Positions 4,865 through 38,529 of a DNA stretch of 64,000 nucleotides are shown piece by piece; the stretch's first letter is position 1, and each line of letters opens with the position of its first letter. The translations under genes were made by a program, and so were the position numbers. The stretch spans positions 1 to 64,000 of IMG/VR virus record IMGVR_UViG_3300021431_000087. One strand, 5' to 3'. The DNA is from a virus. Taxonomy: Duplodnaviria > Caudoviricetes. A model generated the notes under the pieces. It was not told where the DNA came from. It searched no databases and worked only from the letters and a program-made list of their open reading frames with translations.

Positions 4865-6112
4865 TTATTCTTTCTTTTTTGCTTTCCAGTGTTCCGCAAG
4901 CATCCTTGCGTGTTCATCCCTGCCCACCTTAATATATTTAAGGAAGGCAGACTCCGTCCTATGCCCCGTGATGCTCATGATACTTATGGAGGGGAAACCG
5001 GACTTGTAAAGGTTTGTCGCGAATGACCGCCTGCCCGTGTGAGATGAGACAAGCATCCACTTGCGGTATCTCGCCGTTTCCCTTTTCCCGCCTCTGGTGA
5101 CGGATATAATGACTCTTGCATTTATACGCGCCGCCTTGCAGACCTCCTTTATGCGCCTGTTGAACTTCTGGTTGCTTATACGGATGGGAACGCCGCCGTA
5201 CCTCTCCCATATCTCCATGAAAACGGGATGGATGGGAACGGTGACGTAATTGTTAGTCTTCTGCTGGCGGATGACGATGACGTCCTCCTTTATATTCTCC
5301 TCACAAAGACTCATGATATCGGAAAAGCGCAGTCCTGTCCAGCACTCCATAAGGAAGAGGTCTCTTATCCTCGCAAGCCGCGGGTGCCTCGAGAGGTTAC
5401 ACCTGCGTATCCGCTCGAGCTCCACTTCGTCGAGTGCCACGGCATCGGTCTGCTCCGTCGCCTTCTTGTATGTCTTCCACCTTGCATTGGTAGTGAGCCC
5501 CCTCTCAAATGCAGCACCCATGACGGCCTTGACATCGGATACCTTGTTGGCAATGGTGTTCGTGGCGAGACGCTTGGATTGCAGGAACGATACAAAAGAG
5601 TCAAAAAAGGTTGTGTCAATATCCTCGAAATTGAGAATCCTCTTGTCCTTGTCCTCGTACTCCTTTATATATTCCAACGTGCAAATATATCTCCTTTTCG
5701 TCCTATACGTTATTGTCTGCCCGCCCCGCCGACTGTTGATGCGTGACTCGTTAGCCTCGATAAATTCCTGGAAAAAGTCATGGAACGTCCCGGCCTTTGG
5801 CCTCGCCTTTCCGAAATGGATATCGAGCACCTCCCTCATGCTCTCCTTGGTGACCAATCCCCCCGAATGTGCCGTCTCAACGATATACCCATTAAGCACC
5901 TCGGCTATTCCATCAAGGGCATAGTTGACGCTGTCCCTATAAGGACAGTACATACTTTGTTTTACTCTCTGTTTCTCGGAATCCCAAAAGAAACGCTCCA
6001 CCTTCAAAGGGGTTGCATACATAAGTTTCTCGTTCCTTCCGAAACGCGCCGTGACATAGACGGCCTGTGGCTCATCTATATTCCGTCGTATGACATATTT
6101 GAATACAGGCAT
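4865..6112 (-). CDS. int: Tyrosine recombinase/integrase (Bacteroides type: arm-binding, SAM-like and catalytic domains)
   Basis: Catalytic R (TGLRFSD), K (QQKT), HxxR (SHTGRRS), H (ITGH), Y (KYIK). Confidence 0.95.
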   Translation of the reverse strand: MPVFKYVIRRNIDEPQAVYVTARFGRNEKLMYATPLKVERFFWDSEKQRVKQSMYCPYRDSVNYALDGIAEVLNGYIVETAHSGGLVTKESMREVLDIHFGKARPKAGTFHDFFQEFIEANESRINSRRGGQTITYRTKRRYICTLEYIKEYEDKDKRILNFEDIDTTFFDSFVSFLQSKRLATNTIANKVSDVKAVMGAAFERGLTTNARWKTYKKATEQTDAVALDEVELERIRRCNLSRHPRLARIRDLFLMECWTGLRFSDIMSLCEENIKEDVIVIRQQKTNNYVTVPIHPVFMEIWERYGGVPIRISNQKFNRRIKEVCKAARINARVIISVTRGGKRETARYRKWMLVSSHTGRRSFATNLYKSGFPSISIMSITGHRTESAFLKYIKVGRDEHARMLAEHWKAKKKE

Positions 6113-6420: not shown

Positions 6421-6878
6421 CTCAATGTTAAGGTTATATAAAATTATGCTTTTCTGTCATATCTTTTTATTATGGCAAATAGATGTTAAGATATTTCATA
6501 TTTCGCATATTATGCATACAGAATATATTTGTTAGGGTATCGCCAAAGGGAACAGCATCTTTGCTGTTCTTTTTTTTGAACAGGCAAGGAATCATTGACG
6601 AGTAATTGATGAGTTCTTTATATTTTCGTTGGAGGTAGCCCAGGACACAATATCCACTTGCCATAACCCAGATTTGATAGGTAACCTCTTGATGTCGTAC
6701 CTTGACCTTGTATTTTGTTTTGATTTTCCATGATTTATCTATAATGAACGTTCTTAGAATGCTTATCCGCTTGTGCAACGATGGAACAGAAGAGCTTATT
6801 CATTTCGTAAGAATCATAAACTCGTCTGTCTCCCCTTACCAATCTTATGCCATTGATATTTACCTCCATAATCTATCT

Positions 6879-7217
6879 TCAATTTTCAATGATCGGTTTA
6901 TAATACCCTCCTTCCCTTGCAAGTTTCTTCAAGTCTTCTAAAGCCTCATTAGGTGTGTCTCCAACACCATAAATACGCTGTGGAAGGGATGGGGATTCCT
7001 TGTCTATCAGGATAGAGCCATCTTCTTCAAAATTGTCTGTTACAAGTTTAGAGTAGCTATCCAATGGGAAGGCGAGATACTTTCCTCCGGTATATGCACC
7101 GCCGAACCTGTCAGTAACGATGGTCAATGGGTATATGGTGCCATCATCACAAATGGTTAGCTCCACGGGACATACATCTCCGGGATATACCTCTACGTCA
7201 ATGTAATATTTTTCCAT
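6879..7217 (-). CDS. Hypothetical protein (moron next to attP)
   Basis: 112-aa acidic ORF; C-terminal 'GVGDTPNEALEDL' resembles a HicB-like fold motif. Confidence 0.65.
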   Translation of the reverse strand: MEKYYIDVEVYPGDVCPVELTICDDGTIYPLTIVTDRFGGAYTGGKYLAFPLDSYSKLVTDNFEEDGSILIDKESPSLPQRIYGVGDTPNEALEDLKKLAREGGYYKPIIEN

Positions 7218-7221
7218 GATT

Positions 7222-7650
7222 TTACTTTTTTCCGAATATCATTTTTGAGAAAGAGATACAATACGGCCACAATGCCTTTTCCTTTGTCGTTGCCTTATAG
7301 CACCAACTTTTTACTTTTATATGCTTTGAGGTGTCATATATATCGTTTATGAACGAGAAATCCACATAGCCCTCATTGTCCACCTCTATTTTATCCGGGA
7401 TTTCTATAAAGCCTTCTATGTGTTCTTTCGTTCCATCGTTTTTGAGGATGGCACTGGTTGCACTTACGAACACGGCATTTTTATGTTCACCAGTTTCTTC
7501 ACATACCACATCGAGGATGTGGGAAAAATAGATATCCCACCATCCCATTTCATCGTAGGTATATGGGAAGTATGGTTTCTTGTCAGGCAAGCTATACCAT
7601 GTGTTTGAAGAACGCCCAAATCCACGCCAAATAAAATCGTCTTCTTCCAT
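7222..7650 (-). CDS. Hypothetical protein (moron next to attP)
   Basis: 142-aa ORF with its own TATCTTTG promoter at about 7666-7673, downstream of the tail-operon terminator. Confidence 0.65.
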   Translation of the reverse strand: MEEDDFIWRGFGRSSNTWYSLPDKKPYFPYTYDEMGWWDIYFSHILDVVCEETGEHKNAVFVSATSAILKNDGTKEHIEGFIEIPDKIEVDNEGYVDFSFINDIYDTSKHIKVKSWCYKATTKEKALWPYCISFSKMIFGKK

Positions 7651-25454: not shown

Positions 25455-28400
25455 TTATAGTTTAGAGAGTTTGTTATCTATTGATTGCAATCTCGGCAAG
25501 AACTCCGCACGAATTCCCTCGGTGGCTATCTTGACGGCATAGAGGTGTTCGTTGGTCGTGCGGAGCATGGAGCGTATCTCCATTACGGTATTTCCGTTAG
25601 GCGATGCTATACCACCCATCATCTGCAAAGTGGAGAGTATCTGTTTCCTTACGTCATTACCCTGCTCCAAGGCTATCTGCTGTGCCGTGGCTATCCCTAA
25701 GTACAGTTCAAACTGGTCATAGGTGGCCTTGTCAGCCATGTTGACGTGCGCCTCCTGATCTGCAAGTGCGGAGGTGTCGGTAATGCCCATCAGCTCCTGT
25801 ATGGCTCTGGCCTGCTCGGTGTAGTTGTCCCTTGCGTCACCGATGACACGTTTCAAGTCCAACAACTGTGCAGCACGGTCACTCTCCGATATGTCGCTAT
25901 CCATGATCTGACGGTAGCGTTCCTGCCACTCATTGAGCATTTTGTCGAAGCCCTCGCCAAGCACGAACTTATCCACAAATGCCTCGGTGAGTATCTTATT
26001 GATGTTGTCGGCGAAGTCCTCGGTGGAACTCTCCATATCCATGAGGTCGGAGAGGAAAGAGGAACGCAGACCGCTCAGCGGTGTGTCCTCGGCAACATAC
26101 TCCAGTTCCTTTAGGTCGTCTAAGAGAGGCTGTACGGCTCTCGCTGCGTCCTCCCTCATTTGCACCATCTGCTGACGGATATTCTCTATGGCTGCGCTGT
26201 CACCGTTCTGCAGTGCTTTCGCCCACTCGTTGTTCAGTTCGTCGAGTTTATTCTGGAACTGGTTCTTTAGCTGGGTGTCAATCATCTGCTCGATGAGCGT
26301 CCTGCCTATCTCCTTGCCGAATGTCTCGGCATCAGCTTCCATATCCATGAGGGTGTTGACGAACGTACTGCGCAGGTCTGAGAATGGCAGTTCCTGTTTC
26401 TCCGTGATACCCAGTTGAGCGAGTATGTCGTGCACCACAGGCTGTGCTTGTTCAAAGGCTTGCTTGGCGGCTTCTATCTGCGGCGTGAGGGCTGTGAGTA
26501 CACTGCTCACGGTAGCACCCTCCACGCTCATTGCTGCGTTGAAGGCTTTCTGTAACTCATCGAGGAACGGCTGTATCATCGTAGAAGAAACCATCTCATC
26601 GACAATCTTCTCTGCCATCTTGCGTCCTACCGACTCTGCCCAATCCTCTGCCGTGGCATCGAGGTTCATCAGCTGACTGCGGAAGTCACCGCCCATATCC
26701 TTGAAGGTAGTGTCGTTGACAACATCCTGAACATAGCCCAGAGCGTTCATGTATTCCTGTGCCTGTTTAGCCAAAGAGCCACGCAAGTCCTCCAACTCTT
26801 TTCTTAGGGCTATCAGTCCCTCGGTGTCGTTAGCCTCCAGTGCGCTCTCAAAGCTCTCACGCCATGCGTCCATCTGCTGATCGAAGGCATCATTGAGGAT
26901 ATTCCTCTCCACAAGCTGCTCCACCATCGTCTTGGTGATATTCTTCGACCATGCCTCTACGTCACCGTTGATGTCTGTGAGTGTAGAGAGGAACGAACTG
27001 TGCAAGTCCTCGAAGGCCGACTTCGTTTCATCCTTTGCTTCCTCGGCATCAATACCGAATGCCTCCCACATCTGCTTGGATTTCTCGCTGATCTCGCCCG
27101 TGGTCTTGTCGAACTCGGCATTAAGCTCTGCCAACTGACGATCATAGTCGGTCTGTGAGATTACCCCGTCTGTGAGGTCGCTCATCAGCTTAGAGTAACG
27201 CTCTGCCCATCCGTTGGACCACTTATCAAACTCCTCGTCAAGCAGCTTGCTCTGTATGAGGTTCTGTAGGATGGAATTACGCAGGTTGTTGCCCCACGCC
27301 TCCATGTCTGTCTCACTGTCCGAAACAAGCTGCTCGAATGCACTTCGAATGGTATCGAGGTATTCCAGTGTATCTTCCGTTGTCTTGTCGGCCGCATCAT
27401 CGATGGTCTTGATAATACCCATCTCCTGAAAATTCTTCATTTGACCTTGGGCACCAGTGACAAGATTCTCGTACTGCGTTCTTAGTTCTTCAAGTTTCCT
27501 TTGATATTCCTCATCGGTAGTGATAATACCCGTATTCCTTTCTTCCTGAACTTTTGCAAGATCATCGTACCATTTCTTAATGTCTCCCTGGAAATCCTTT
27601 AGGATAAGGTTGTTGATAACCATGCGGTTTATCATCTGCTGCCAATTGGTAGCGATATTATCCATCACTTCCTCGGAGCCGTCTGCAAGGTCATATAGAG
27701 AGTTTTTGAAATTCTCCAAGACATTGTCCTTCGTAGTGAGAGTCAGCTTCTCCGATAGGTTATTAGCTATTTCCTCAAAGGCTGTCCCGAACTCATCAAC
27801 ATACTCATTAAGCATGTTGGCAAGTTGGTCAGAACGACCACCGGAACCACCCTCCACACGATACTCTCTAAGGATTTTAGCCCACAGTTCACCATTGTTT
27901 AACTCAATAATCTTCTGCATCTGCTCGGCAGTAAGACTAAGGAAATCCTTAGAAGACTTCACGGTAACCCCAAGCAATTGACTCACCTGCCTCATAGCCT
28001 CTTTCCAACCACTGTTATCTTCTACTGAGGAATGTAGGCTGCTTCTCCAAGTCCCATGCTTATTACCTTCTGCTATCATAGCATTCTGATAATCCCTCAT
28101 CCGCTGCTCCTGCAGCTTCTGAATGTCCTCGGCCTTATTCATGGCATCTATACCATAGGAATTGTTGAAAGCCTTCTCCAAAGAACTCATCGCCTTTGCA
28201 AGCGCATCGCTATGAGCATTGAGGTCGTCAATCTTCTTTTGCATCTTAGCAGTATTGTCTGCGCCTATGCCAATAACATTAGAAAGGTCTTTCATCGTGT
28301 TGATAGCCTTTGATGCAGCACCGATATAATTCCCGGATGCGAAATCCGACATGGCACCCATCGCGTTGCTGGCAGCAGAGGCGACCTGTCCCACTTTCTG

Positions 28401-31400
28401 TCCGGCCTTAGTGTCACCAAGCCCTAAAGAGTCCATAAGGTCAGGCAGTGCTTGTATATTAGCGTTTATCGTCTGTAAGCTGTTGGCGAACTCACCTACA
28501 CGCTGTCTTACGTTAGACAATGCCTCTCCCAGCTTTATACTTCGGCTTTCAACGTTCTTATCTGCCTCGCCTTTGTTCTCCGTAGCATTCTTCGCATCAC
28601 GCTCTGCTCCTGCAAGTTCAAAGAGTCCCTTTTCTACCTCCTTATATAATGGACTACCTTTTCCCCATGCCTTTTCTGCCGCAGAAAGGATAGCATTGGC
28701 TTTTGAAGTGTTGACATCACCGCCATAAACACCATTACCTCTCAAGATTGCCTTTAGGTTGGCTGTCTTAGTAGCCACCGTTGCTTGCGCTTCCGCAACC
28801 GCTTTAGCAGCATCCTCCTGCTGACGCAGGGCTTCCGCTTGCTCCCGTCTAAGCCTGGCCACCGTCGTTTCGTCAGGTATAAGAGCCCCCAACAGGCCTT
28901 TCTCCTGTTTGCGCTTCTCAACAATGGCATCATTGATCTTATCTATTCTCTCAGCTACAGTCTTGTATTCGTCAATGCCTAACTCTTTCGTGTCAAACAT
29001 TCCACGTAACAGTTCCTTCGCCTCATTAAGTTTCTCCAGACTAAGATTCTCCAGATCGTTGAAGATATCTTCGAGGTTCATTGCCCTTTCAGCCTGCTGT
29101 TTGTCATGCTGAGAGAGGACCTGATTCTTCTGACCGGCGAGTGCAAGACGTTCTCCCGCAGTCTGTGCCTTAGCTATCTTTTCGTCATACTCATGAGCAA
29201 TAGCCAGTCGCTGTTCTTCTGCCGTTCCGAACTCTTTAAGGTAGTTCGTCATAGCCTCACGCTCTGCTGCGTTGCGATCGTTTAAAATCTTCTGATAGTC
29301 TTGATTGTACTGCTGTTCTATCTGTTTTCTTTGTGTTCCGAACAACTCGAGTCCTTTTGCAACTTCTGGGTCAGCGAGGTCTTTGCCAGCCTTCGCTACA
29401 TTATCTTTGTACTCACTAATCCTATCTTCAAGCTCCGTTATCGACTTGTCGTAATTACGTTTCAGTTCTGCCACAGACTTGTCAAAGCCATCCTCCATTA
29501 GCGAAATCGTCATATCCGCAATAGACTCGGCATTCTCCTCCTCCATCTTACGCAGTGTCTCTAAAGCCCTCTTTTGTTCTTCAAGGGTCTTGTCTACTGC
29601 CGTACCACCTCTGGAACCTCCTCCTCCTTTTGGTCCTAATACTGGGTGGTTTTCCGTATTGTTCTTTAATCGGTCTTGTGCACCGATTGTCTCATTTATC
29701 TTTTGAGTGTATTTGTCAATCTGAGCGTTATTCGCTTCTATCGCCTTTGTGTTATTTTTTATGCCCTCTGTCGCCTCATTCCATTTCCCTATTAGATCTC
29801 TATTAACGCCTGGAGTCTTTAACGAAGGATAAGATGTCCCCGTTGTGTTGAAAGAAAAGGCTTGTGTCTGGTTTTGTATAACAGAGTTTCTAACAGATTT
29901 GTTGTACTCTCTTCTGTTCTCTTTCTGGAATTGTTTGTTCTTGTCTATAGAATCCTGTAAGTCGATATTCTGAGAGGTAAGCTCTTCTATCTTCTTCTGA
30001 TATGCTCTCGCCTGTGCTGCAGCCAATATGTCATTTGTTAGCTGATTGTACTTATCGGATGCCTGACCAACAAGTATAGCTTCATCTGTCAACTCACTGA
30101 AATATCCAGGATATGCCGAACGGATGGCATTAACAGCCTTCAGACGCTCTTCTTTCGACTTTGTTTCATCTGTAGCACGATCATAGAGTAATTTTAAGTT
30201 TACTCTTTCTGCGACAGAGTCTTTCTCGCCCTGAACAGCAGCGTCATGTAATTCCTTCTCTCTTTCGATACGTTCCTGCTCTGCCTTTGACAGCTCCTTC
30301 GTACGTGTCGTGTACAATGTAATAGCACCAATGGCTATTCCCAGTAAAGAGGCTATCCTGACATACGGATTCATGTTGGCTACCTTGTTAAACAAAGTCT
30401 GTGCTATCGTTGAAGCCTTAATAGCGAATGAATAACTTTCTTGCAAGCCAACCGTCACAGCCAATAAAGACTGTATTTTTGTCTGTATGGCAGCCATCGC
30501 CTCAGTGTCTCTATTAAATAAGCCTATGACACCTGTTGCCAAGCTGCCGACTCCCGCAATTCCCTGCAGCCCATCTTTCAAAGCCTTCAAAGAACCTCCC
30601 CGGGAGTTATAATCCATAAGAAGGTTAATCTTAGCCATATTCTCCTTTAGTTCGCTGGCTTTATTTACTGCCTCTGTAAACTCCGGAGTCCCCTCTTTCC
30701 CTGCGTCTATTAAACTATCAATTTCTTCTCTTGTCTTGCGTATCTGTACACGTATGCTCTCATGAGCTTCTGCTACCTTGTTTGCAGTTTGCTCCGCTTC
30801 TTGATGGCCATCCCTTATCCTTATTAGGGCTTCCTCTATATCGGCAAGATCCTTGATACTCCTTTCATAATTTGCATCAATCATGCCAGACCAAGGCTGA
30901 ACGAGATCGGCTGTTGATTCTACGCCTTTTAGACGCTCCATGATAATGTCTACACGCGCGAGGAGTTTATCAACAACAGGATCAGCAGACGACACACCAT
31001 CTATTACACTGCCAATATTTTCCCGCAATGACGTCAATTCCTCCATAAGAGACCTGGCATGCTTGACACCATCTTCCAAATCCTCCTGAGAAACTTTGCC
31101 GAATAAAGAGAAGCTTTTTCCTAACTCATCAACTGCGGTTATCTTAAGCCCTTGTTCTAAAGACCTACCCATTTCTTGATAAGCCTGACTTTGCCCTTTT
31201 GCTAAGGTTATATTCTCTCTAATGGCATTGCCTATCTCTTTAAATAGGTTTAAGGCATTCTCTCTCTGCGTCTGGTCTAACCCTTCTGTATTGACCTTTG
31301 AGAACTCTGACTCTGCTTCTTTTATTATTTTTTCAAGGCCCTCCAGCTCAGTAGCAAACCCATCGTAATATTCTTGAAGGTTTCGGCCTAACTTTCCTGC

Positions 31401-31760
31401 TCCCGAATCTATTTGTTTCTCACTTGATGCGATTTGCGAAAGCGCCGTTATTATTTTAGATATTTTCAAGGCTGCATCATCTCCTGTGCTTGCAATAGTC
31501 TGTATAGCCTCCGTTGCCCTTTGCCTAAAACTCTCTGCAGCACGTTCCGACAAACCGAATTTTTCTATTACAACATCAAAGAAACTCTGCATTCCTTTGC
31601 CAAGGTTCTTTCCGTCAAAGATACCATCCATCACGTTCTGCATATCACCACCCATTTTCTCCACCTGAGCAGCCATATTCCTGACACTATTAAGTATCGC
31701 ATTCGCAGACCTAATGAACGGGTCGTTCTCTAAAGATAATACAAACTCTATCCCTGGCAT
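25455..31760 (-). CDS. Tail tape measure protein
   Basis: 2101 aa, almost all helical/coiled coil, central hydrophobic segments, upstream of Dit/Tal. Confidence 0.9.
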   Translation of the reverse strand: MPGIEFVLSLENDPFIRSANAILNSVRNMAAQVEKMGGDMQNVMDGIFDGKNLGKGMQSFFDVVIEKFGLSERAAESFRQRATEAIQTIASTGDDAALKISKIITALSQIASSEKQIDSGAGKLGRNLQEYYDGFATELEGLEKIIKEAESEFSKVNTEGLDQTQRENALNLFKEIGNAIRENITLAKGQSQAYQEMGRSLEQGLKITAVDELGKSFSLFGKVSQEDLEDGVKHARSLMEELTSLRENIGSVIDGVSSADPVVDKLLARVDIIMERLKGVESTADLVQPWSGMIDANYERSIKDLADIEEALIRIRDGHQEAEQTANKVAEAHESIRVQIRKTREEIDSLIDAGKEGTPEFTEAVNKASELKENMAKINLLMDYNSRGGSLKALKDGLQGIAGVGSLATGVIGLFNRDTEAMAAIQTKIQSLLAVTVGLQESYSFAIKASTIAQTLFNKVANMNPYVRIASLLGIAIGAITLYTTRTKELSKAEQERIEREKELHDAAVQGEKDSVAERVNLKLLYDRATDETKSKEERLKAVNAIRSAYPGYFSELTDEAILVGQASDKYNQLTNDILAAAQARAYQKKIEELTSQNIDLQDSIDKNKQFQKENRREYNKSVRNSVIQNQTQAFSFNTTGTSYPSLKTPGVNRDLIGKWNEATEGIKNNTKAIEANNAQIDKYTQKINETIGAQDRLKNNTENHPVLGPKGGGGSRGGTAVDKTLEEQKRALETLRKMEEENAESIADMTISLMEDGFDKSVAELKRNYDKSITELEDRISEYKDNVAKAGKDLADPEVAKGLELFGTQRKQIEQQYNQDYQKILNDRNAAEREAMTNYLKEFGTAEEQRLAIAHEYDEKIAKAQTAGERLALAGQKNQVLSQHDKQQAERAMNLEDIFNDLENLSLEKLNEAKELLRGMFDTKELGIDEYKTVAERIDKINDAIVEKRKQEKGLLGALIPDETTVARLRREQAEALRQQEDAAKAVAEAQATVATKTANLKAILRGNGVYGGDVNTSKANAILSAAEKAWGKGSPLYKEVEKGLFELAGAERDAKNATENKGEADKNVESRSIKLGEALSNVRQRVGEFANSLQTINANIQALPDLMDSLGLGDTKAGQKVGQVASAASNAMGAMSDFASGNYIGAASKAINTMKDLSNVIGIGADNTAKMQKKIDDLNAHSDALAKAMSSLEKAFNNSYGIDAMNKAEDIQKLQEQRMRDYQNAMIAEGNKHGTWRSSLHSSVEDNSGWKEAMRQVSQLLGVTVKSSKDFLSLTAEQMQKIIELNNGELWAKILREYRVEGGSGGRSDQLANMLNEYVDEFGTAFEEIANNLSEKLTLTTKDNVLENFKNSLYDLADGSEEVMDNIATNWQQMINRMVINNLILKDFQGDIKKWYDDLAKVQEERNTGIITTDEEYQRKLEELRTQYENLVTGAQGQMKNFQEMGIIKTIDDAADKTTEDTLEYLDTIRSAFEQLVSDSETDMEAWGNNLRNSILQNLIQSKLLDEEFDKWSNGWAERYSKLMSDLTDGVISQTDYDRQLAELNAEFDKTTGEISEKSKQMWEAFGIDAEEAKDETKSAFEDLHSSFLSTLTDINGDVEAWSKNITKTMVEQLVERNILNDAFDQQMDAWRESFESALEANDTEGLIALRKELEDLRGSLAKQAQEYMNALGYVQDVVNDTTFKDMGGDFRSQLMNLDATAEDWAESVGRKMAEKIVDEMVSSTMIQPFLDELQKAFNAAMSVEGATVSSVLTALTPQIEAAKQAFEQAQPVVHDILAQLGITEKQELPFSDLRSTFVNTLMDMEADAETFGKEIGRTLIEQMIDTQLKNQFQNKLDELNNEWAKALQNGDSAAIENIRQQMVQMREDAARAVQPLLDDLKELEYVAEDTPLSGLRSSFLSDLMDMESSTEDFADNINKILTEAFVDKFVLGEGFDKMLNEWQERYRQIMDSDISESDRAAQLLDLKRVIGDARDNYTEQARAIQELMGITDTSALADQEAHVNMADKATYDQFELYLGIATAQQIALEQGNDVRKQILSTLQMMGGIASPNGNTVMEIRSMLRTTNEHLYAVKIATEGIRAEFLPRLQSIDNKLSKL

Positions 31761-31908: not shown

Positions 31909-32556
31909 ATGAGTGATGAAATCGGGTACGTCTATGTACTAAAGAACGAATGTATGCCGGGATTGATAAAGATAGGAATCACCGACAACATACAGGAGCG
32001 CATGAGGGTATTGAACAACACAAGCGTTCCCGTGCAGTTTGAGTCCGTCTATACATGTGTGGTCAAGAAAGCGGACATGAGAAAGATTGAGTCCGCACTC
32101 CACAAGGCATTTGCCCCAGACAGGGTGAACCCCAAAAGGGAGTTCTTCCGCATGGATGCGGACAGGGTGATACCGATACTCTCCATGTTCCAGTTGGAGA
32201 ACATCACGGATGAAATAAATATGGAACTCAACAAAGACCTTGACCCGCAGGAGCGTGTCGCCCTTGAGAAAGAAAAGGCAGAGTCACCAAAGAGAAGAGA
32301 GCCGTTCAACTTTCTCGCTTTGGGAATAAAGGAAGGCGAGCATCTTTATTGGAGGGACGACCCCCATATCTTCGCCACTGTCGCGACGGAAAAGAAGGTG
32401 GCGTACAATGGCGAACTGATGTCCCTTACTGCCGCCACAAGCAAAATAAAGGGGCTTTCCTACGGCGTTCAGCCCACTCCCTACTGGCTCTACAACGGTC
32501 GACCGCTGATAGACATCTATATGGAGCGCTACTCGCCCATCGACTGTGAATCGTAA
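31909..32556 (+). CDS. GIY-YIG (T5orf172/MUG113-type) nuclease fused to a RAMA-like C-terminal domain
   Basis: 'GYVYVL...IKIGIT...IQERM', 'ESALH', 'REFF'; C-terminal 'VAYNGELMSLTAAT...YWLYNG'; opposite strand, own TATTTTTG promoter. Confidence 0.75.
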   Translation: MSDEIGYVYVLKNECMPGLIKIGITDNIQERMRVLNNTSVPVQFESVYTCVVKKADMRKIESALHKAFAPDRVNPKREFFRMDADRVIPILSMFQLENITDEINMELNKDLDPQERVALEKEKAESPKRREPFNFLALGIKEGEHLYWRDDPHIFATVATEKKVAYNGELMSLTAATSKIKGLSYGVQPTPYWLYNGRPLIDIYMERYSPIDCES

Positions 32557-32578: not shown

Positions 32579-32797
32579 CTATGCCCTTACCATGCAGTGT
32601 ATCGTTAAGTGATGCTTTAAGTTGCTGAAAAGCAACTCACCGTCCTCAAACAGCATAGTGCATTTACTTTTTCTTTCCGTATCGTTCAACCCCAAGGCAA
32701 AGAGCCATGCATTAAGATAGCGGATGTCGTAGCGTGTCATGTCATACAGGCATAGTATGTTGACACCGTCTTTCCCCATTTCAAGCATCGTACTCAT
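32579..32797 (-). CDS. Hypothetical protein
   Basis: Start ATG 32797 (MSTMLEMGKDG) is ATGA-coupled to the upstream gene. Confidence 0.6.
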   Translation of the reverse strand: MSTMLEMGKDGVNILCLYDMTRYDIRYLNAWLFALGLNDTERKSKCTMLFEDGELLFSNLKHHLTIHCMVRA

Positions 32798-33183
32798 AGG
32801 CATGGCTCTCCTAACAGTTGCACAGCTTTTCTCATAAGGTAGCCCGTAAGCCATGCCCCGTCCTCACTGCCGTATGGAACGTCATAATAGTCACATATGG
32901 CAATCATGGCATGATAGAGTACCTCGTGCGCCGTCGTATCCCACCACTGGTCGCCACCCGTAGCATTCCCTACGAACACAAGACTCATGCAGATGTCATC
33001 ACGGCTTACGCACATGCCACTATTCTTCTGGAAAAGCAGAACATCTATCGCCTCGTCAATCTTATCCCCTCGCATTCCGAAAGCTATCATAGCCTGACGC
33101 ATCTCATACTCGTCAAGCCTCCGTAGGTCGTGGCAGAGGATTATTCCCCAATAACCTTTTATGTCTATATAATCCGTCTTCAT
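32794..33183 (-). CDS. Hypothetical protein with HE-xxx-H motif (zincin-like?)
   Basis: 'TAHEVLYHA' followed by 'SEDGAWLTGYL'. Confidence 0.65.
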   Translation of the reverse strand: MKTDYIDIKGYWGIILCHDLRRLDEYEMRQAMIAFGMRGDKIDEAIDVLLFQKNSGMCVSRDDICMSLVFVGNATGGDQWWDTTAHEVLYHAMIAICDYYDVPYGSEDGAWLTGYLMRKAVQLLGEPCL

Positions 33184-33188
33184 AGGCT

Positions 33189-33584
33189 TTAGCAGAATCT
33201 TTCCCAGTGTAAGGCAACGCCTGCGTTCCTCATCTTCGCCACGAAACAGTCAAGCACGTTCTCCTTGCATCCGTCGGGGTCGAGAAGGGTCTCTTCCACG
33301 AAGATGGCTCGCTGCTCATCGGTCTCACACGTCTTAGGATAGTCGGCTTTCGCCATGTTGAACAAATACCAGGCTGTGTAGATATGCTCTTCGGGAATGG
33401 ATACCTTATACTCCTTCAAGGTATCAAGCGTATCTTCAAGCGGTACGGAAAGAAGTTTCTTCTTCTCACCATTCTCGTCCTTTACCATCATATGCCTTAT
33501 TGCAAAATCTGCAAGCCTCTTGGAAAAAGCGCCTTGGTAAAGGTCTTCATATATTGCCCTGTCCTCTGATATATATTGTTTCAT
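33189..33584 (-). CDS. Hypothetical protein of the CCC cassette
   Basis: 131 aa, 'FSKRLADFAI', 'YLFNMAKADY', 'DPDG'. Confidence 0.75.
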   Translation of the reverse strand: MKQYISEDRAIYEDLYQGAFSKRLADFAIRHMMVKDENGEKKKLLSVPLEDTLDTLKEYKVSIPEEHIYTAWYLFNMAKADYPKTCETDEQRAIFVEETLLDPDGCKENVLDCFVAKMRNAGVALHWERFC

Positions 33585-33653
33585 TTTCTTTTTTCTTTTT
33601 TGATATTCTATTTTAGGGGGTCGGAATATTCCACTACCCCGACCCCTTCATTA

Positions 33654-33869
33654 TTAGTAGCTGCGACGGCGGTAGTCCTCGGACTCCATTTCCTCCTCAC
33701 AGTCTTTCCAACCCTTCTCGTAGCCTTCCTTCCAGCTCTCCTCATCCTTGTAAGACGTGGTGCTTGTGCGGTAGCCGCCACGATAACGTCCGCTGTTTCG
33801 CATACGTGAGCGCATATATGAACGCATCTCACTCTTGCTGTCCTCGTTACTTTCCTTAATAATCAGCAT
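33654..33869 (-). CDS. Small highly charged Arg/Glu/Tyr/Gly-rich protein
   Basis: 71 aa low-complexity 'MRSYMRSRMRNSGRYRGGYR...YRRRSY'. Confidence 0.7.
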   Translation of the reverse strand: MLIIKESNEDSKSEMRSYMRSRMRNSGRYRGGYRTSTTSYKDEESWKEGYEKGWKDCEEEMESEDYRRRSY

Positions 33870-33893
33870 AGTCTTTGATGTTTTTTGTGGTTT

Positions 33894-34421
33894 CTATTTC
33901 TTGGATGGGGTAAAAAGCTCATTCAGCTTGCTAATGATGGTATCGAGCTTGCTGTCCGTAGCCGCCTGACGTTCCTCGAGGGACTTTATAGTCCTATCAC
34001 GCTGTTTCTCCTCGGCATAGCGGGGGTTCAGCGTTTCCATGAACCTCTCTCCCTCGGCGAGAACCATCTTGTTATAACTATCCCTTTCAAGCTCTGCCTT
34101 TGATGTCTGCATCATGGCATCCACCGCCTGCATCATTGCCTGCGGACTTCCTGAATAGGTGACATCACCTCGCGCGGCTATCTCCACGTTACATGGGATA
34201 TCGGGAATGACACGGTCATTGCCTCCCACGGTGGCAACGATCCTTACCAACTGTGGCTGCGCCCCCATGCCGTTCAGTGCTGTCGGAACTGCCTGAAACT
34301 GATACTGCGGCTGCTGGAGAATCTTCTCCTTGACCGTTCCTACCTCGAGAGTAGGTTTCTGACCCTCTCGCTTAGTGAGTATATAGAATGGGCTACCCTG
34401 CCCAAGACTGTTGAAATCCAT
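33894..34421 (-). CDS. Hypothetical coiled-coil protein of the CCC cassette
   Basis: Likely start ATG 34421 (MDFNSLGQGSPFY); C-terminal 'LNPRYAEEKQRDRTIKSLE' coiled coil. Confidence 0.75.
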   Translation of the reverse strand: MDFNSLGQGSPFYILTKREGQKPTLEVGTVKEKILQQPQYQFQAVPTALNGMGAQPQLVRIVATVGGNDRVIPDIPCNVEIAARGDVTYSGSPQAMMQAVDAMMQTSKAELERDSYNKMVLAEGERFMETLNPRYAEEKQRDRTIKSLEERQAATDSKLDTIISKLNELFTPSKK

Positions 34422-34453
34422 AGTTAAATACTTGTTTTTTAAATATTTTTTTG

Positions 34454-34560
34454 TAACTTTGCATCGGGAATAGTTCAGTTTGGCCACTGAATGACAAGAG
34501 GTAAGTCAACGCCTCTTTCCCGTTTTTCAATCGTTGACATTATTAAACATAAAGTTGACA
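34454..34560 (+). promoter_or_regulatory. HNH gene promoter and structured leader
   Basis: TAACTTTG 34454-34461; nested stems closed by CGGGAA/TTCCCG followed by T5; loop GTCAAC complementary to GTTGAC at 34533 and 34554. Confidence 0.6.
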
Positions 34561-35220
34561 ATGAAAAAAGAGGAATTTATCGAGTCTATAAGGCTCGAAG
34601 GAGAAGAGTGGAGAGATGTAGTTGGTTACGAAGATGACTACATGGTGTCGAATCTCGGTAGAATTGCAATGGTTAGAACCTTTTACGTCTATTCAAGGAA
34701 TGGTAGGAGCTTTACAAAACGATGTGTACCTCACATCTGTAGTACATCCATAGCACCAAGCACACCATATCGAAGAATGACGTTTGTAAAAAACGGGGAA
34801 AAGGAAACACAACTATTACATAGAATAATTGCGATGGCCTTCCTTCCTAATCCAGACGGTTTGCCATGTGTCGACCATATAGATGATAATCCTTCAAATT
34901 CAATAGCCTCGAATTTACAATGGTGTACATATAAAACCAACAATTCCAAAGAGCATCATCGCACAGCTACATCAGAATCAAAAAAGGGTGTTCCAGCTTA
35001 CAATAGAACTGCTATAGTCAAACTCTCTAAAGACATGGATTTAGTTAAAATCTATTCTTCGATGACACAAGCAGAACTTGAAGGCTTTTCTCATTCCGCT
35101 ATCCATAGAGTTGCTCATAACAAGCTAAAAACGCATGGCGGATTCAAATGGATGTATCTTTCCGATTACGAAAAACTCTTGTCAAATCAGTTGTCAAAGA
35201 ACGCTTCACCTAATGATTAG
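34561..35220 (+). CDS. NUMOD4-HNH-NUMOD1 homing endonuclease
   Basis: NUMOD4 'EEWRDVVGYEDDYMVSNLGRI', HNH 'HRIIAMAFLPNP...VDHIDDNPSNSIASNLQW', C-terminal 'IYSSMTQA...THGGFKW'; free-standing, antisense to the cassette. Confidence 0.9.
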   Translation: MKKEEFIESIRLEGEEWRDVVGYEDDYMVSNLGRIAMVRTFYVYSRNGRSFTKRCVPHICSTSIAPSTPYRRMTFVKNGEKETQLLHRIIAMAFLPNPDGLPCVDHIDDNPSNSIASNLQWCTYKTNNSKEHHRTATSESKKGVPAYNRTAIVKLSKDMDLVKIYSSMTQAELEGFSHSAIHRVAHNKLKTHGGFKWMYLSDYEKLLSNQLSKNASPND

Positions 35221-35295
35221 GTTCTGTAGTAAGGTCTTAAAGTTTTTTACCACCTTTTTGACCCATCTACTTTTGAGGTTATTACTTGCTTTTTC

Positions 35296-35634
35296 TCATA
35301 CCGTCGTACGTGACATTAGTTGAAGTATGCCATCGAAACGATTGTTGAAAACAAGGAATACTCCTGTTCCACCAGTCAAATCTGCAACCGTTGCTGGTGT
35401 TCCGTTAAACAGGGTCAGAGCCCTTGTCGTACCATTCAAGGTAAGAGTTATGGGCAGTGTACCCGTTGTTCCTGTAGGTATTGCGTCCGACAAACGGACG
35501 GTGAAATAGCCTACAGGCTGTATGCGACGAAACCCTAAAGCAATGTCAACAGAATCGGTCCCGACCGTAACATTTGTTGACGGTAAATAGGCAATTCCTC
35601 CTGCATTTGTAGTTATGTTGTTAAAACATGCCAT
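35296..35634 (-). CDS. Beta-rich hypothetical protein of the CCC cassette
   Basis: 112 aa, Thr/Gly/Val-rich, directly follows the CCC gene. Confidence 0.75.
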   Translation of the reverse strand: MACFNNITTNAGGIAYLPSTNVTVGTDSVDIALGFRRIQPVGYFTVRLSDAIPTGTTGTLPITLTLNGTTRALTLFNGTPATVADLTGGTGVFLVFNNRFDGILQLMSRTTV

Positions 35635-35655
35635 ACATTACCTCCTTTTGCCTAT

Positions 35656-36648
35656 TTAGAAAACAATGTTATTACCACCAAAGCCGTTCCAATTGCCATA
35701 GAAGCCTCCCACAAACGGAGTGGTGTTGACCACCGAAACCTGCGGGTACTCTACGTTAATGGTATTAGGAAGTTTGCACTTGATGTCATCCACTTCCTTT
35801 GCAAGACCTGCGAGCTGTGCGTTCAGTGGAGCGACAGCCTGCTGAACGACACCAGCGGTGAAGTTCTGCGATTTCAGTTGGGCGTTTTCTGCCGTGAGGG
35901 CGGTGATTTCCCTATCCTTACGGTTCGATTCAAGAGCGTCTATCTTGTTGTCGAGGGCGAGGAAGTTCCGGTTCATAGTATCGGTAAGTCCGTATGTTTG
36001 CTGACACATAGCCAACTGGTCGGAAGCCGCCTTTGATGCGATGGACTGCTGTACGCCTGCGAAGCCCTGCTGTGCTGCGACAGCGTTTGCGTTCAAGCCC
36101 TGCTGAAGCGCATTAGTCTGTTGGCACATAGCCAACTGATTCTGGCAGCAGCACTGCTGGAACTGAGCGCCAAGGCTTGCGTTTCCATTCTGGATGGCGT
36201 TAATGACCTGCAGGGCATTCATACCCTGATTTGCACTGATGGTATTCAAAGCATTCTGAATACCCTGAATCGAGGCGTTTACTAAATTGAAATCCTGCCC
36301 GAGCATGGTACTCAGCGTCTGTGTTGCCGTGCGGGAAGCCTCGCCTTGGTTGGTGATAGCCTGCATGATAAGTTCTCTACCCGTGTCATTGCTGATTTGA
36401 TTGGAGAGGAAACCTGCAGCACCGTTAACGCCACCATTACCGCCAAATCCGAACCCTCCGCCGTTGTTCCATCCGAAGATAGAAGCCACGATGGCGAGCG
36501 TGATAAGGCCTCCGATGTCATTGCCGAAACCATTACCTCCGAAGATGCCTCCGCCACCGAAGCCACCCACGGGGATAGAGAACGGAATGTTTCCGAATCC
36601 TGCATTTCCAGAATTGCTTTCCGGAATTTGATAAATTTCTGAAGCCAT
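35656..36648 (-). CDS. Gly/Asn/Gln-rich 'CCC' coiled-coil protein of unknown function
   Basis: 330 aa; GGF/GGNG-rich N-terminus with hydrophobic 'LITLAIVASIFGW', Q/N/A heptads, 'QQCCCQNQ', coiled coil, aromatic/Gly C-terminus. Confidence 0.8.
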   Translation of the reverse strand: MASEIYQIPESNSGNAGFGNIPFSIPVGGFGGGGIFGGNGFGNDIGGLITLAIVASIFGWNNGGGFGFGGNGGVNGAAGFLSNQISNDTGRELIMQAITNQGEASRTATQTLSTMLGQDFNLVNASIQGIQNALNTISANQGMNALQVINAIQNGNASLGAQFQQCCCQNQLAMCQQTNALQQGLNANAVAAQQGFAGVQQSIASKAASDQLAMCQQTYGLTDTMNRNFLALDNKIDALESNRKDREITALTAENAQLKSQNFTAGVVQQAVAPLNAQLAGLAKEVDDIKCKLPNTINVEYPQVSVVNTTPFVGGFYGNWNGFGGNNIVF

Positions 36649-36681
36649 AGTTTAGTTTTTGTGATGTTAATACATTAGTTC

Positions 36682-36774
36682 CTTGTCTTTGCGCATCGAC
36701 AAGGACAAAGATAGGCAGGAAATATATCAAAAAAAAGGATTTTCTTGTTTTCAGACTGCACAGACATTGCAGTC
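36682..36774 (-). promoter_or_regulatory. CCC-cassette promoter, leader hairpin and upstream palindrome
   Basis: Minus strand TATCTTTG (36713-36706), CCTTGTC/GACAAGG hairpin, GACTGCA-N7-TGCAGTC at 36754-36774. Confidence 0.6.
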
Positions 36775-36993
36775 CTTAGAGAACTTTTTTAGAAGGTAAT
36801 AGACCTTCCGCTCGCTTATTCCGTACTTCTCCGACAAGACAGATACGGCATAGGTTATCTTTCCGCCGTGACCTATGATGCCCATAAAATCATCATAGAG
36901 ACAGATATACCTCACATCACCCACACTGATGCAATTTTCATGCAGTATGTTTAACACTAACTGGTCAATTTTTAACAATTCTATAACTTTCAT
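36751..36993 (-). CDS. Small HTH protein (Mor-like C-terminus), candidate cassette regulator
   Basis: 'LSEKYGISERKVYYLLKKF' HTH. Confidence 0.7.
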   Translation of the reverse strand: MKVIELLKIDQLVLNILHENCISVGDVRYICLYDDFMGIIGHGGKITYAVSVLSEKYGISERKVYYLLKKFSKDCNVCAV

Positions 36994-37029
36994 AAGACGT
37001 GTTTTAAGGTTTTATTTAACTTTGCATTG

Positions 37030-37130
37030 ACCTCAAAACAACTATGAAAGAGAGGTGTGAACCCCGTCATTGCAGCCTTGCGCTCTAATAAATCGGTGGT
37101 GCCTTTTATTAAAGACGGGGTTCCCTTTTA
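37030..37130 (+). ncRNA. Candidate structured antisense small RNA
   Basis: Plus-strand TAACTTTG at 37017-37024; 10-bp stem GAACCCCGTC/GACGGGGTTC enclosing inner hairpins, then CCTTTTATT. Confidence 0.45.
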
Positions 37131-37838
37131 TTCCCAATCATGAGACCTTATCGCCTCCATTATCGCCTGTCTGTTATCACCGTCCACCTTCTTCCTGTCC
37201 CTTGATATGTGAATCTTCTTCCTCTCCTCATCCGTCACATACAAGGAGTTGACACGGTCTGCGAGAAGAAGCCTTAGCGATGTGTAGTCTATTTCCCATA
37301 CGACCTGTCTCTTCGTCATCTTGTACCGTTCCATAGCAACGTCAAGCAGCGAACCGAAGACAGAGACTCCGCCGAAGGTGTAGCTGTTCTTGTCCGAGGC
37401 GGATTTCACCTTAGCCACCTTCTGCATATCTTTCTGCTCGATGTCAATACCGAGGTGAGTGATAAAGCGTTCCGTCCTGTCCGATGACAACGCCTTCATG
37501 ACGAGCATCGCTATCTCACTGTCTTCCTGTTCCATGAACACTGTTTTTCTCCTGTCAAAAGCGTCATAGTCGAAGACGGAGTAATAGTCGTTCCTTGCCG
37601 TAAGGTAGGCGAGAAGGTCGCAGCAGGCAGGCTTGTTCTTCTCCACGACACGCAGCATTTCAAGCATGGCGTTCTTCTCGAGGTTCTTCTTTTCCAATCC
37701 CAACGACTCGGATATCCTCTGCATGAGATGAATCTTTCCGAGTGTCAAGGGATAGAGGTAGAACGTCTCGCCATCGATTCTGAACACATGGGGACGTTCA
37801 AGAATGGCATCCTGTATTTCGTAGTCCAACTCTTCCAT
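37128..37838 (-). CDS. Tail assembly chaperone
   Basis: 'FYLYPLTLGK', 'TFGGVSVFGSLLD...WEIDYTSLRLLLAD'; downstream of the tail tube gene. Confidence 0.7.
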   Translation of the reverse strand: MEELDYEIQDAILERPHVFRIDGETFYLYPLTLGKIHLMQRISESLGLEKKNLEKNAMLEMLRVVEKNKPACCDLLAYLTARNDYYSVFDYDAFDRRKTVFMEQEDSEIAMLVMKALSSDRTERFITHLGIDIEQKDMQKVAKVKSASDKNSYTFGGVSVFGSLLDVAMERYKMTKRQVVWEIDYTSLRLLLADRVNSLYVTDEERKKIHISRDRKKVDGDNRQAIMEAIRSHDWE

Positions 37839-37842
37839 GCCT

Positions 37843-38529
37843 TCATTTCCACAATTCCTTGTGCTCCATTATCCAGTCGAAAAGGTCTATGTTGAGGAAC
37901 TCATGGCTGCCATGGCTGAAATGCTCAATGTATTCATCCACCTTGAACTCCTTATAAGGAAGTCCTTTGTCGAGTGTGTCTCTCATAAACCACGCCCCCG
38001 TGTCATAAAGGTTGTTGGGTTTCTTCGTCGAGAGATTCCACATCCATTCACCGTTAAAGTAACGTACTCCGTGCCTTTTGCACATTGGCACGTTGATATA
38101 GCAGAGGAACGGCAGGAGGCGAGTGACGTAAGCACCTTTCGGGCCGTCATCCTTCATCTCTCCGGACCACACGCAACTCTCGTCCCATATCCACGTGAAA
38201 TCCTTCTTTATCAAGATGTCGGAATCCATAAGGATAAAGCCGTCAGTCAGTATGTCGAAACAGGCATCGACGCTTTTTGTGTGCATGGCGCTCCCAAAGG
38301 AGGAAAAAAGACCTGCCTTACGTTCGGGGTACTGTCTCAGCAGAGCATCGAAATCAAACACCTGCCCCCTTGTATTGTCTATTACCTCCACACCTTCAAT
38401 TTTTTTTGTAAACGGCTCCTCATCGGAATTGTCAAAGACATAAAAGGGACAGTCCGTATATTTCCTCACGCTGCGGACAAGTACATCGACAAGAATAGGG
38501 GTGTTGTAATGGACGGTTAGTATATTCAT
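37843..38529 (-). CDS. GT-A fold (family 2-like) glycosyltransferase
   Basis: 'ILTVHYNT', 'YVFDNSD', DxD motif 'ILMDSDI', 'YDTGA', C-terminal 'EHFSHGS'. Confidence 0.75.
   Translation of the reverse strand: MNILTVHYNTPILVDVLVRSVRKYTDCPFYVFDNSDEEPFTKKIEGVEVIDNTRGQVFDFDALLRQYPERKAGLFSSFGSAMHTKSVDACFDILTDGFILMDSDILIKKDFTWIWDESCVWSGEMKDDGPKGAYVTRLLPFLCYINVPMCKRHGVRYFNGEWMWNLSTKKPNNLYDTGAWFMRDTLDKGLPYKEFKVDEYIEHFSHGSHEFLNIDLFDWIMEHKELWK

Follow-up and report, generated by a model that had tools for sequence, protein, structure and literature searches.

We examined a 64,000-nucleotide (nt) stretch of viral DNA (Duplodnaviria; Caudoviricetes), positions 1 to 64,000 of IMG/VR record IMGVR_UViG_3300021431_000087, hereafter the window. 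This window covers the first 64 kb of one 124-kb viral contig, whose record has a completeness of about 77%; no DNA-level similarity to deposited phages was found. Between two tail genes on the minus strand lies a gene cassette whose lead protein carries a cysteine triplet (CCC). The cassette is a mobile accessory operon of Bacteroidales phages, inserted here in the tail operon. An earlier account made from the DNA letters alone (the sequence-only reading) had described it as seven co-directional genes with their own promoter, palindrome and antisense element. All of the open reading frames (ORFs) that it listed are present on the minus strand, and the cassette stands, but the count is slightly low. 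Eight co-directional minus-strand ORFs, of 80, 330, 112, 175, 71, 131, 129 and 72 amino acids (aa), run from 36993 to 32579 (Table 1). The same stretch holds two plus-strand genes, an HNH gene inside the cassette and a T5orf172 gene at its tape-measure edge. The core order is the 330-aa CCC protein, the 112-aa beta protein (gene 2), the 175-aa protein (gene 3), an optional 71-aa peptide, the DUF7841 protein and the HExxH protein.

Table 1. Features of the cassette and its surroundings in the window (AF2, AlphaFold2; pLDDT, predicted local distance difference test)
Feature	Position	Strand	Match or remark
80-aa DNA-binding-like protein, optional gene	36751..36993	-	PHROG 17790, E 1e-23
Bacteroidota-type -7 promoter box TATCTTTG	36706..36713	-	5' of lead gene
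Palindrome TCCTTGTCGATGCGCAAAGACAAGGA	36680..36705	-	TGTC-N-GCGC-N-GACA type; immediately after -7 box
Lead protein, 330 aa	35656..36648	-	PHROG 16490, E 3e-25
Gene 2, 112-aa all-beta protein	35296..35634	-	AF2 pLDDT 85
NUMOD4/HNH_3 homing endonuclease, antisense, between genes 2 and 3	34534..35220	+	PHROG 59, E 1e-35
Gene 3, 175 aa	33894..34421	-	PHROG 28898
71-aa Arg/Gly/Tyr-rich peptide, optional	33654..33869	-	MRSxMRxxMR ... GYxxGW (alignment A5)
131-aa DUF7841 protein	33189..33584	-	Pfam PF25223, E 4e-9
129-aa zincin-like protein	32794..33183	-	HEVLYH = HExxxH
72-aa terminal ORF, optional	32579..32797	-	ATG overlaps stop codon of preceding gene
T5orf172/MUG113 gene, homing-endonuclease-like, tape-measure-proximal edge	31909..32556	+	Pfam PF10544, E 1e-18
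236-aa tail-operon protein, upstream flank, outside cassette	37128..37838	-	PHROG 11996, E 5e-37, no function assigned
Stem-loop GAACCCCGTC/GACGGGGTTC, 3' of 236-aa gene	37040..37127	-	RNA fold -28.3 kcal/mol, z -2.9
2101-aa tape-measure-like protein, downstream flank, outside cassette	25455..31760	-	tblastn match to 1775-aa MT835773 protein
Major capsid gene	41937-40627	-	
Integrase gene	4865-6112		

No cassette protein has a characterised relative. Searches of all cassette proteins against Pfam, PHROG, NCBIfam and PADLOC returned only DUF7841 and PHROGs without a function, with zero matches to the PADLOC defence models at E <= 0.1 for the eight proteins. Profile searches of PDB sequences with five families gave only coiled-coil noise (fibrinogen, fusion glycoproteins) at E > 0.01, with no relative of gene 3, and the ESM Atlas matched genes 2 and 3 to unnamed viral clusters only. 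We found no mapping of the genes to ordinary known virion proteins, and the literature held no paper on DUF7841 or on T5.077, a distant relative from phage T5 described below. The 80-aa protein weakly matched the helix-turn-helix (HTH) family HTH_28 (E 0.044) and, also weakly, small-terminase-like families. Gene 3 has a conserved MDF start (its longest ORF, of 197 aa, begins at GTG), a beta-rich N-terminal half, a helical or coiled-coil C-terminal half and an LNPxYAEEK motif (alignment A3). Homologues of the 72-aa ORF, 70-71 aa long, occur in a few loci only.

Comparison with a related contig, MT835773, revealed how the cassette is placed. The virion operon of the window runs in the order major capsid, 153-aa tube-like, 228-aa, 236-aa, tape measure and tail/fibre genes, the 153-aa gene between the capsid and 228-aa genes being tail-tube-like. 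MT835773 has homologues of the capsid, tube, 236-aa, tape measure and distal tail genes in collinear arrangement, and there only 39 nt, with no cassette, separate the 236-aa homologue from the tape measure gene. Because the same two tail genes are so close in MT835773, the 5.4-kb block in the window is an insertion. The cassette had been proposed to separate a tail chaperone gene from the tape measure gene. The insertion is borne out; the chaperone label depends on position only, and the 236-aa protein is putatively a tail chaperone on that ground.

We then surveyed the distribution of the cassette. In IMG/VR, a scan with the 330-aa protein gave 80 loci; scanning prokaryote genomes, one for each species, added another 58 in which the order is kept, which makes about 140 phage or prophage loci in all, with unrelated flanks. 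The synteny check that the sequence-only reading had called for thus found the genes travelling as a unit, with the order kept in most of the 80 viral and 58 genome loci. Gene counts by tblastn were taken over 84 loci (the 80 from IMG/VR and four annotated phage loci). The 112-aa gene was detected in 76, the 175-aa gene in 72, the DUF7841 gene in 61 and the HExxH gene in 56, and the optional 80-, 71- and 72-aa genes in 22, 17 and 5, respectively. Order and strand of the detected genes were identical in every locus, and their co-conservation is well above chance.

Hosts of the 58 genome loci are nearly all Bacteroidales (Prevotellaceae, Muribaculaceae, Paludibacteraceae, Bacteroidaceae, Rikenellaceae, and isolates of Paraprevotella and Parabacteroides, with prophages in P. 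xylaniphila YIT 11841 and P. segnis BX2). Further carriers are crAss-like phages belonging to two families and Bacteroides phage C3_41T2LP, whose host is B. uniformis. The carrier phages inhabit the gut and rumen. Similar CCC proteins had been said to recur in gut Bacteroidota and Bacillota prophages; this holds for phages of gut Bacteroidota, whereas recurrence in Bacillota is unsupported. Of the only two contigs found in metagenome-assembled genomes assigned to Bacilli, L121 (66 kb) has a crassvirus tail-ring gene and L127 (92 kb) a crassvirus cargo gene, each together with the cassette. They are therefore probably mis-binned crass-like phages and were not counted as evidence of Gram-positive hosts.

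Frequent 5' neighbours of the cassette are genes for fibres, reverse transcriptases of diversity-generating retroelements (DGRs), holin-like proteins, DUF5675 (an L,D-peptidase-like endolysin) and DUF6808. The cassette lies directly 3' of the holin, DUF5675 and DUF6808 genes in many loci. On its own 3' side is either an integrase gene or a replication block in convergent orientation, with a sliding clamp and a DnaA-like HTH. In the crAss-like phage cr116_1, the cassette lies between the endolysin gene and a homologue of gp31, the gene preceding the capsid gene, and the equivalent neighbours in crAss001 have nothing between them. These varied flanks, and the lack of the cassette at the matching sites of crAss001 and MT835773, show it to be dispensable and portable.

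The lead protein has a Gly-rich head, a short hydrophobic segment, a conserved helical rod, the CCC triplet and a Gly/aromatic tail ending in Phe. In the window it has the hydrophobic segment IGGLITLAIVASIFGW, QQCCCQNQ and the C-terminus NNIVF, in line with the hydrophobic segment, Cys triplet and aromatic-Gly tail that the sequence-only reading had described. Among 32 sequences with identities down to 44%, 22 columns are invariant and 36 near-invariant. The invariant positions include the motif TMLGQDFN and one position of the Cys triplet, whose other two positions are near-invariant; with further Cys at conserved positions, the protein has six conserved cysteines. The N-terminus, MAEIYQxP...IPFSIP, is kept across podovirus-like crassviruses and siphovirus-like phages. 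This conservation is position-specific rather than compositional, and the proposed amyloid or prion-like make-up is therefore unsupported. The hydrophobic segment of the Bacteroidales copies is 13-16 residues long and lacks Lys or Arg at its flanks; its Hessa-scale score, taken over 19 residues, is +3 to +6 kcal/mol.

Two distant relatives of the lead protein were detected. The first, T5.077, aligned with the lead family in hhalign with a probability of 97.3% (E 2.7e-11 over 111 columns) and of 95% over the C-terminal 56 columns, scores that low-complexity regions may inflate. Like the lead protein, it has a Gly/hydrophobic segment, Gln/Asn/Ala-rich helices and a triplet, ECCCE; it ends in ...KLP and differs in having a long, charged, His-rich N-terminal domain. 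Its gene belongs to T5.077-T5.079 (L088:65-1672), a short unit which, like the cassette, has its own promoter (P12) and terminator (bidirectional). The T5 unit has three genes, not six, and no homologue of the 112-aa (w112), DUF7841 or zincin-like proteins; the partners of T5.077 are a Gln-rich protein (T5.078) and a 64-aa Cys-rich protein. The latter, the third gene product, has four Cys-Cys pairs and an IWF end that echo the Cys-rich or Phe-terminal tails of Bacteroidales lead proteins. T5.077 is kept in 223 records of T5-like phages, and the unrelated Pseudomonas phage KPP23 has a copy of the unit (ORF074-072) beside its terminase gene.

The second relative is in vir215 (L087:4878-7479), a virus whose host is given as Methanomassiliicoccales, an archaeon. 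Its lead homologue has two CCC motifs, a strong Shine-Dalgarno sequence and a clear hydrophobic helix, MLIVLFLILILGF. The gene after it encodes a secreted repeat protein of 396 aa that has a membrane anchor at its C-terminus; the remaining Bacteroidales cassette genes were undetectable in vir215. Membrane anchors are clearer in T5.077 and vir215 than in the Bacteroidales copies. Because charged N-terminal domains precede the hydrophobic segment in both relatives, their architecture suggests an N-terminus inside the cell and a Cys-bearing rod outside.

These features bear on the proposal that the cassette builds a cytoplasmic, self-assembling structure of low-complexity or amyloid-like character (an inclusion, coat, condensate or intermediate-filament-like scaffold), perhaps cross-linked through the Cys triplet. 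The coiled-coil rod is flanked by a Gly/Phe-rich head and tail, much as in keratin-type filaments; the partner proteins lack signal peptides, and a standard membrane helix would need a longer hydrophobic segment. Low-complexity partners also occur, namely the RGG/Tyr-rich peptide of the window cassette and Gln-rich T5.078. However, that peptide is optional (17/84 loci), the lead protein is conserved by position and not by composition, clustered conserved cysteines would be hard to cross-link in a reducing cytoplasm, and the distant relatives have genuine membrane-anchor-like segments. We regard cytoplasmic self-assembly as improbable.

The 112-aa protein had been described as beta-rich, in agreement with its AlphaFold2 model, a confident all-beta domain. 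Foldseek comparison of the model with BFVD matched the C-terminal domains of many tail fibres (E 1e-3 to 1e-6) at 10-20% identity. The best PDB match was a baseplate/fibre chain of phage Pa193 (Z 5.7, 96 residues aligned), with the runner-up at Z 2.9. When 1.84 billion proteins were searched with a profile, 213 relatives emerged; the best 150 of these are all small and stand alone, and none is a fibre protein. Gene 2 is one of the best-conserved cassette genes (58% mean column identity) and is unrelated to the crAss001 head fibre gp29 and to gene 2 of cr116_1.

Comparison of 114 distinct lead-protein tails showed that tail type and gene 2 vary together. Lead proteins with a Gly/aromatic tail are accompanied by a w112-type gene 2 in 76 of 80 cases, and mixed Gly/aromatic/Cys tails ending in FWG or FFG retain this type. 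A different, longer gene 2 goes with Cys-rich tails whose last residues are Cys clusters (GCGC, CC) or LV/VI. In the eight loci with a Thr/Pro-rich tail (...ADxIVDRIxxALTPTTT), gene 2 is missing, and gene 3 starts 19-78 nt past the stop codon of the lead gene. The association is strong by Fisher's test (p = 2e-8, uncorrected for relatedness), although this value overstates independence, as tail and gene 2 are neighbours on the DNA and the loci are not unrelated to one another. The match of three tail states to three gene-2 states indicates a direct partnership between the lead protein and the gene 2 product. A natural fusion of a gene-2-like beta domain to a DUF7841 domain (BFVD A0A8S5LXP6, 294 aa, from CrAss-like virus sp. 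ctRQZ5) supports a functional link between these two as well; no longer DUF7841 fusions were found in the range of 316-2000 aa. Judged from the co-variation and the fusion, the cassette products most likely form one assembly.

Such an assembly could be an accessory virion fibre, with the 330-aa protein as shaft, the 112-aa protein as distal knob and the remaining proteins as fibre chaperones and a maturation protease; it would decorate capsids or tails and bind a target common to gut and rumen. The structural match of gene 2 to tail-fibre C-terminal domains, including the Pa193 chain, is what such a fibre would predict. The frequent placement of tail-fibre and DGR genes ahead of the cassette points the same way, as do the position of the crAss001 head-fibre gene gp29 among lysis genes and the labels 'viral fiber' or 'spike' given to homologues by their depositors. 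However, the N-terminus of the shaft, which would dock to the virion, is conserved across unrelated virion types, and the conservation of gene 2 is unlike that of a receptor-binding tip. The stand-alone gene-2 relatives described above and the lack of any relation to gp29 also argue against a fibre. So does the location of T5.077 outside the T5 late genes, in the early region. On balance, a virion fibre is unlikely.

The cassette had also been credited with its own promoter and palindrome, and both were located: TATCTTTG, then TCCTTGTCGATGCGCAAAGACAAGGA, upstream of the lead gene. A -7 box of the form TAnnTTTG lies 56-102 nt 5' of the lead gene in 70 of 79 loci, against a background rate of 5% in random 120-nt windows from the same loci. 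In nearly every locus a palindrome lies directly 3' of the box, so that palindromes are a family-wide feature; their types vary and include CGTAACGTTACG, GTTGTACAAC and GGTTGCAACC. Several of those in related loci, such as CGTAACGTTACG and GTTGTACAAC, are loop-less. Without a loop they cannot form RNA hairpins, and they are therefore read as operators: placed at the expected transcription start, the palindromes look like binding sites for dimeric DNA-binding proteins. The 80-aa protein is a candidate regulator. The GTAAC/GTTAC palindrome type was absent from all 17 loci in which the 80-aa gene was detected and present in 16 of the other 63, a split that fits the 80-aa protein as the binder of one palindrome type and is not proof of it. 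With its own promoter and operator-like palindrome, the cassette appears to be controlled separately from the virion operon, as had been proposed.

The antisense element turned out to be the plus-strand NUMOD4/HNH_3 gene, preceded by its own TAACTTTG box at 34454. Both domains score above the Pfam cut-offs, and the gene is missing from L005, a relative with 95% identity, which together mark it as an HNH homing endonuclease gene. Antisense HNH genes lie inside the cassette in seven other loci and just downstream of it in five more. The T5orf172 gene, by comparison, is also present in L005. Identity between the window and L005 is 95% in the tail genes and for most of the length of the lead gene. 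Similarity then breaks over the lead C-terminus, gene 2 and the HNH gene (34422-35770 against L005:8879-9403). Beyond the HNH gene, identity is 85% in gene 3, breaks a second time over the DUF7841 gene and then returns at 96%. This pattern is expected of homing with co-conversion of the flanks, by which the rod tail and its partner gene would have been swapped together. Since HNH genes lie in or beside other cassette copies too, homing endonucleases are a plausible vehicle of allele exchange.

In the zincin-like protein, His86, Glu87, His91 and Glu107 are invariant (alignment A1), and Glu107, at the position of a third ligand, starts the helix 107-124. Among 111 homologues, the zinc motif is HExxH in 107 and HExxxH in 3, with one lacking a motif in the aligned fragment. 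The window copy has HEVLYH instead of the standard motif, and because of this extra residue, shared with 3 of the 111 homologues, its activity may be altered or lost. The AlphaFold2 model of this protein is confident (pLDDT 94) and had no Foldseek match at E <= 0.001; the best VIA Z was 4.7, and no solved fold matched. Only 2 of 36 members touched Peptidase_M78 or SprT-like, at E of about 0.004-0.01. The name 'PolyVal metallopeptidase', given to the protein in the C3_41T2LP annotation, was not borne out, as the 36 members had no such match in Pfam.

Several features of the flanks accompany the insertion. The stem-loop between the 236-aa gene and the cassette is a possible insulator or terminator; Rfam had no matching family for it or for anything else in the sequence searched. 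A second TAACTTTG is present on the plus strand at 37017. A promoter-like box, TAATTTTG (31787-31780, minus strand), lies just 5' of the tape measure start at 31760 and may restore expression of the tape measure gene beyond the insertion. The 228-aa gene (37843-38529, minus strand), between the tube-like and 236-aa genes, had been labelled a glycosyltransferase and has no Pfam or PHROG match; as it is missing at that spot in MT835773, it represents a second insertion in the tail operon. Elsewhere in the window, three small minus-strand ORFs at 6470-7650, between the gene for a 2116-aa fibre-like protein and the integrase gene, have neither a family match nor an obvious membrane segment. The holin and endolysin of the phage were not found in the 64-kb window; a search of this genome for a DUF5675 endolysin was negative, as it was in the control genomes, and so carries no weight.

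Taken together, these observations lead us to favour, at close to an even chance, a non-virion rod complex that is associated with the envelope and regulated separately. The reasons are the N-terminus kept across virion types, the host-type promoter and operator, the anchor-like segment and the cysteines. Further points in its favour are the holin, DUF5675 and DUF6808 genes just ahead of many cassette copies and, for a place outside the virion, the own promoter and terminator of T5.077 and its position in the early region of T5. The cassette was inserted between the 236-aa and tape measure genes and was invaded later by the HNH gene, with the T5orf172 gene at its border. The small HTH protein, or another dimeric binder, would control the promoter. 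The 330-aa protein would oligomerise into a helical rod, with its short, Gly-flanked hydrophobic segment keeping it at the cytoplasmic membrane. Both rod and Cys cluster would be located outside the cytoplasm, where the cysteines could cross-link; an oxidising compartment suits six conserved cysteines better than the cytoplasm does. The 112-aa, fibre-domain-like protein may cap or handle the Gly/aromatic C-terminal tail, and the 175-aa, DUF7841 and zincin-like proteins may serve as adaptors or as assembly or processing factors.

Such a complex would most likely modify the envelope of the infected or lysogenic cell. Superinfection exclusion, in which the entry of other phages is blocked, is possible but rather doubtful; a role in tuning or assisting lysis is a weaker candidate, and some other envelope function has only a slim chance. 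Several points weigh against an envelope rod. The hydrophobic segment may not be a true transmembrane helix, because it is short, has uncharged flanks and scores poorly on the Hessa scale. A scan of the ORF list for hydrophobicity found no cassette ORF with a signal peptide followed by a lipobox Cys, and it is hard to explain how partner proteins lacking both features would come into contact with a rod in the periplasm. Known exclusion proteins are encoded by single small genes and not by six-gene operons. No relative in PADLOC, Pfam, NCBIfam or the PDB backs any function, and no lysis genes lie near the cassette in the window.

The neighbourhoods seen in other phages suggest an alternative that overlaps with the lysis role just mentioned: a spanin-like device, a single protein with an inner-membrane anchor, whose Gly/aromatic tail, ending in Phe, would extend to the outer membrane and which would fuse or disrupt both membranes at lysis. 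(The likelihoods that we attach to the readings are not meant to sum to one.) Holin and endolysin genes are neighbours in many phages, and the lead protein is built like Rz and class I fusion proteins in combining a hydrophobic, Gly-rich peptide with long helices and with cysteines that are conserved. Read from its sequence, the tail pattern G-x-x-hydrophobic-x-Phe also resembles an outer-membrane beta-signal. However, the cassette is dispensable, being missing at the same spot in crAss001. It contains no gene for a lipoprotein partner, and in many loci candidates (DUF6808 and lipobox-bearing proteins) already lie upstream. The Thr/Pro-tailed forms lack the supposed outer-membrane tail, and one homologue is in the virus assigned to the archaeon Methanomassiliicoccales. 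Instead of late co-transcription with lysis genes, the cassette has its own host-type promoter, and in the window it lies between tail genes with no holin or endolysin found nearby. A spanin-like device is quite unlikely.

Together with its T5 relative, the cassette might represent a new kind of envelope machine: a disulfide-linked, anchored rod with an exchangeable cap and a repressor-operator switch, traded between phages of widely different architecture with the help of homing endonucleases and controlling the entry of rivals or the timing of exit. We consider this broader proposal a possibility that is still to be doubted. Among the most common viruses of the human gut and of the rumen, many carry the operon, crAss-like phages included. 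If it acts on the envelope, through exclusion, lysis control or surface display, it would bear on phage competition and host range in Bacteroidales communities. The copy in the window illustrates how the cassette moves, with an insertion in a tail operon, a border and an interruption of homing-endonuclease type, and a tract that swaps the rod tail and its partner gene. Because all T5-like phages carry a distant version, function could be tested directly in E. coli.

Known systems resemble the cassette in part. Exclusion proteins (T4 Imm and Sp, P22 SieA, HK97 gp15) are likewise accessory, often moron-like and independent of late genes, and lie in the membrane, as is proposed for the rod, but they are single small proteins, and we found no homology to them. 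Spanins (lambda Rz/Rz1, T1 gp11) share with the lead protein an N-terminal hydrophobic segment, a long helical domain, conserved cysteines and frequent holin or endolysin neighbours. In contrast to spanins, the cassette lacks a lipoprotein partner and is dispensable, has five further conserved partner genes and its own promoter, and shows no detected sequence relation. Fibre modules (T4 gp34-38 with gp57A; lambda stf/tfa) also combine a rod, a small matched partner and coiled-coil helpers, and the gene-2 fold is like a tail-fibre domain. Unlike fibres, however, the rod has an N-terminus that is constant across virion types, a hydrophobic segment and a Cys triplet, with no sequence link to any fibre protein. 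Phage morons (lambda bor, lom), like the cassette, have their own promoter and an upstream hairpin, lie between genes that are adjacent in a relative, are dispensable and occur in unrelated phages. The cassette differs from morons in comprising six to eight genes that evidently act together, with their own operator and often their own regulator, and in being carried by virulent-type crassviruses as well as by temperate phages.

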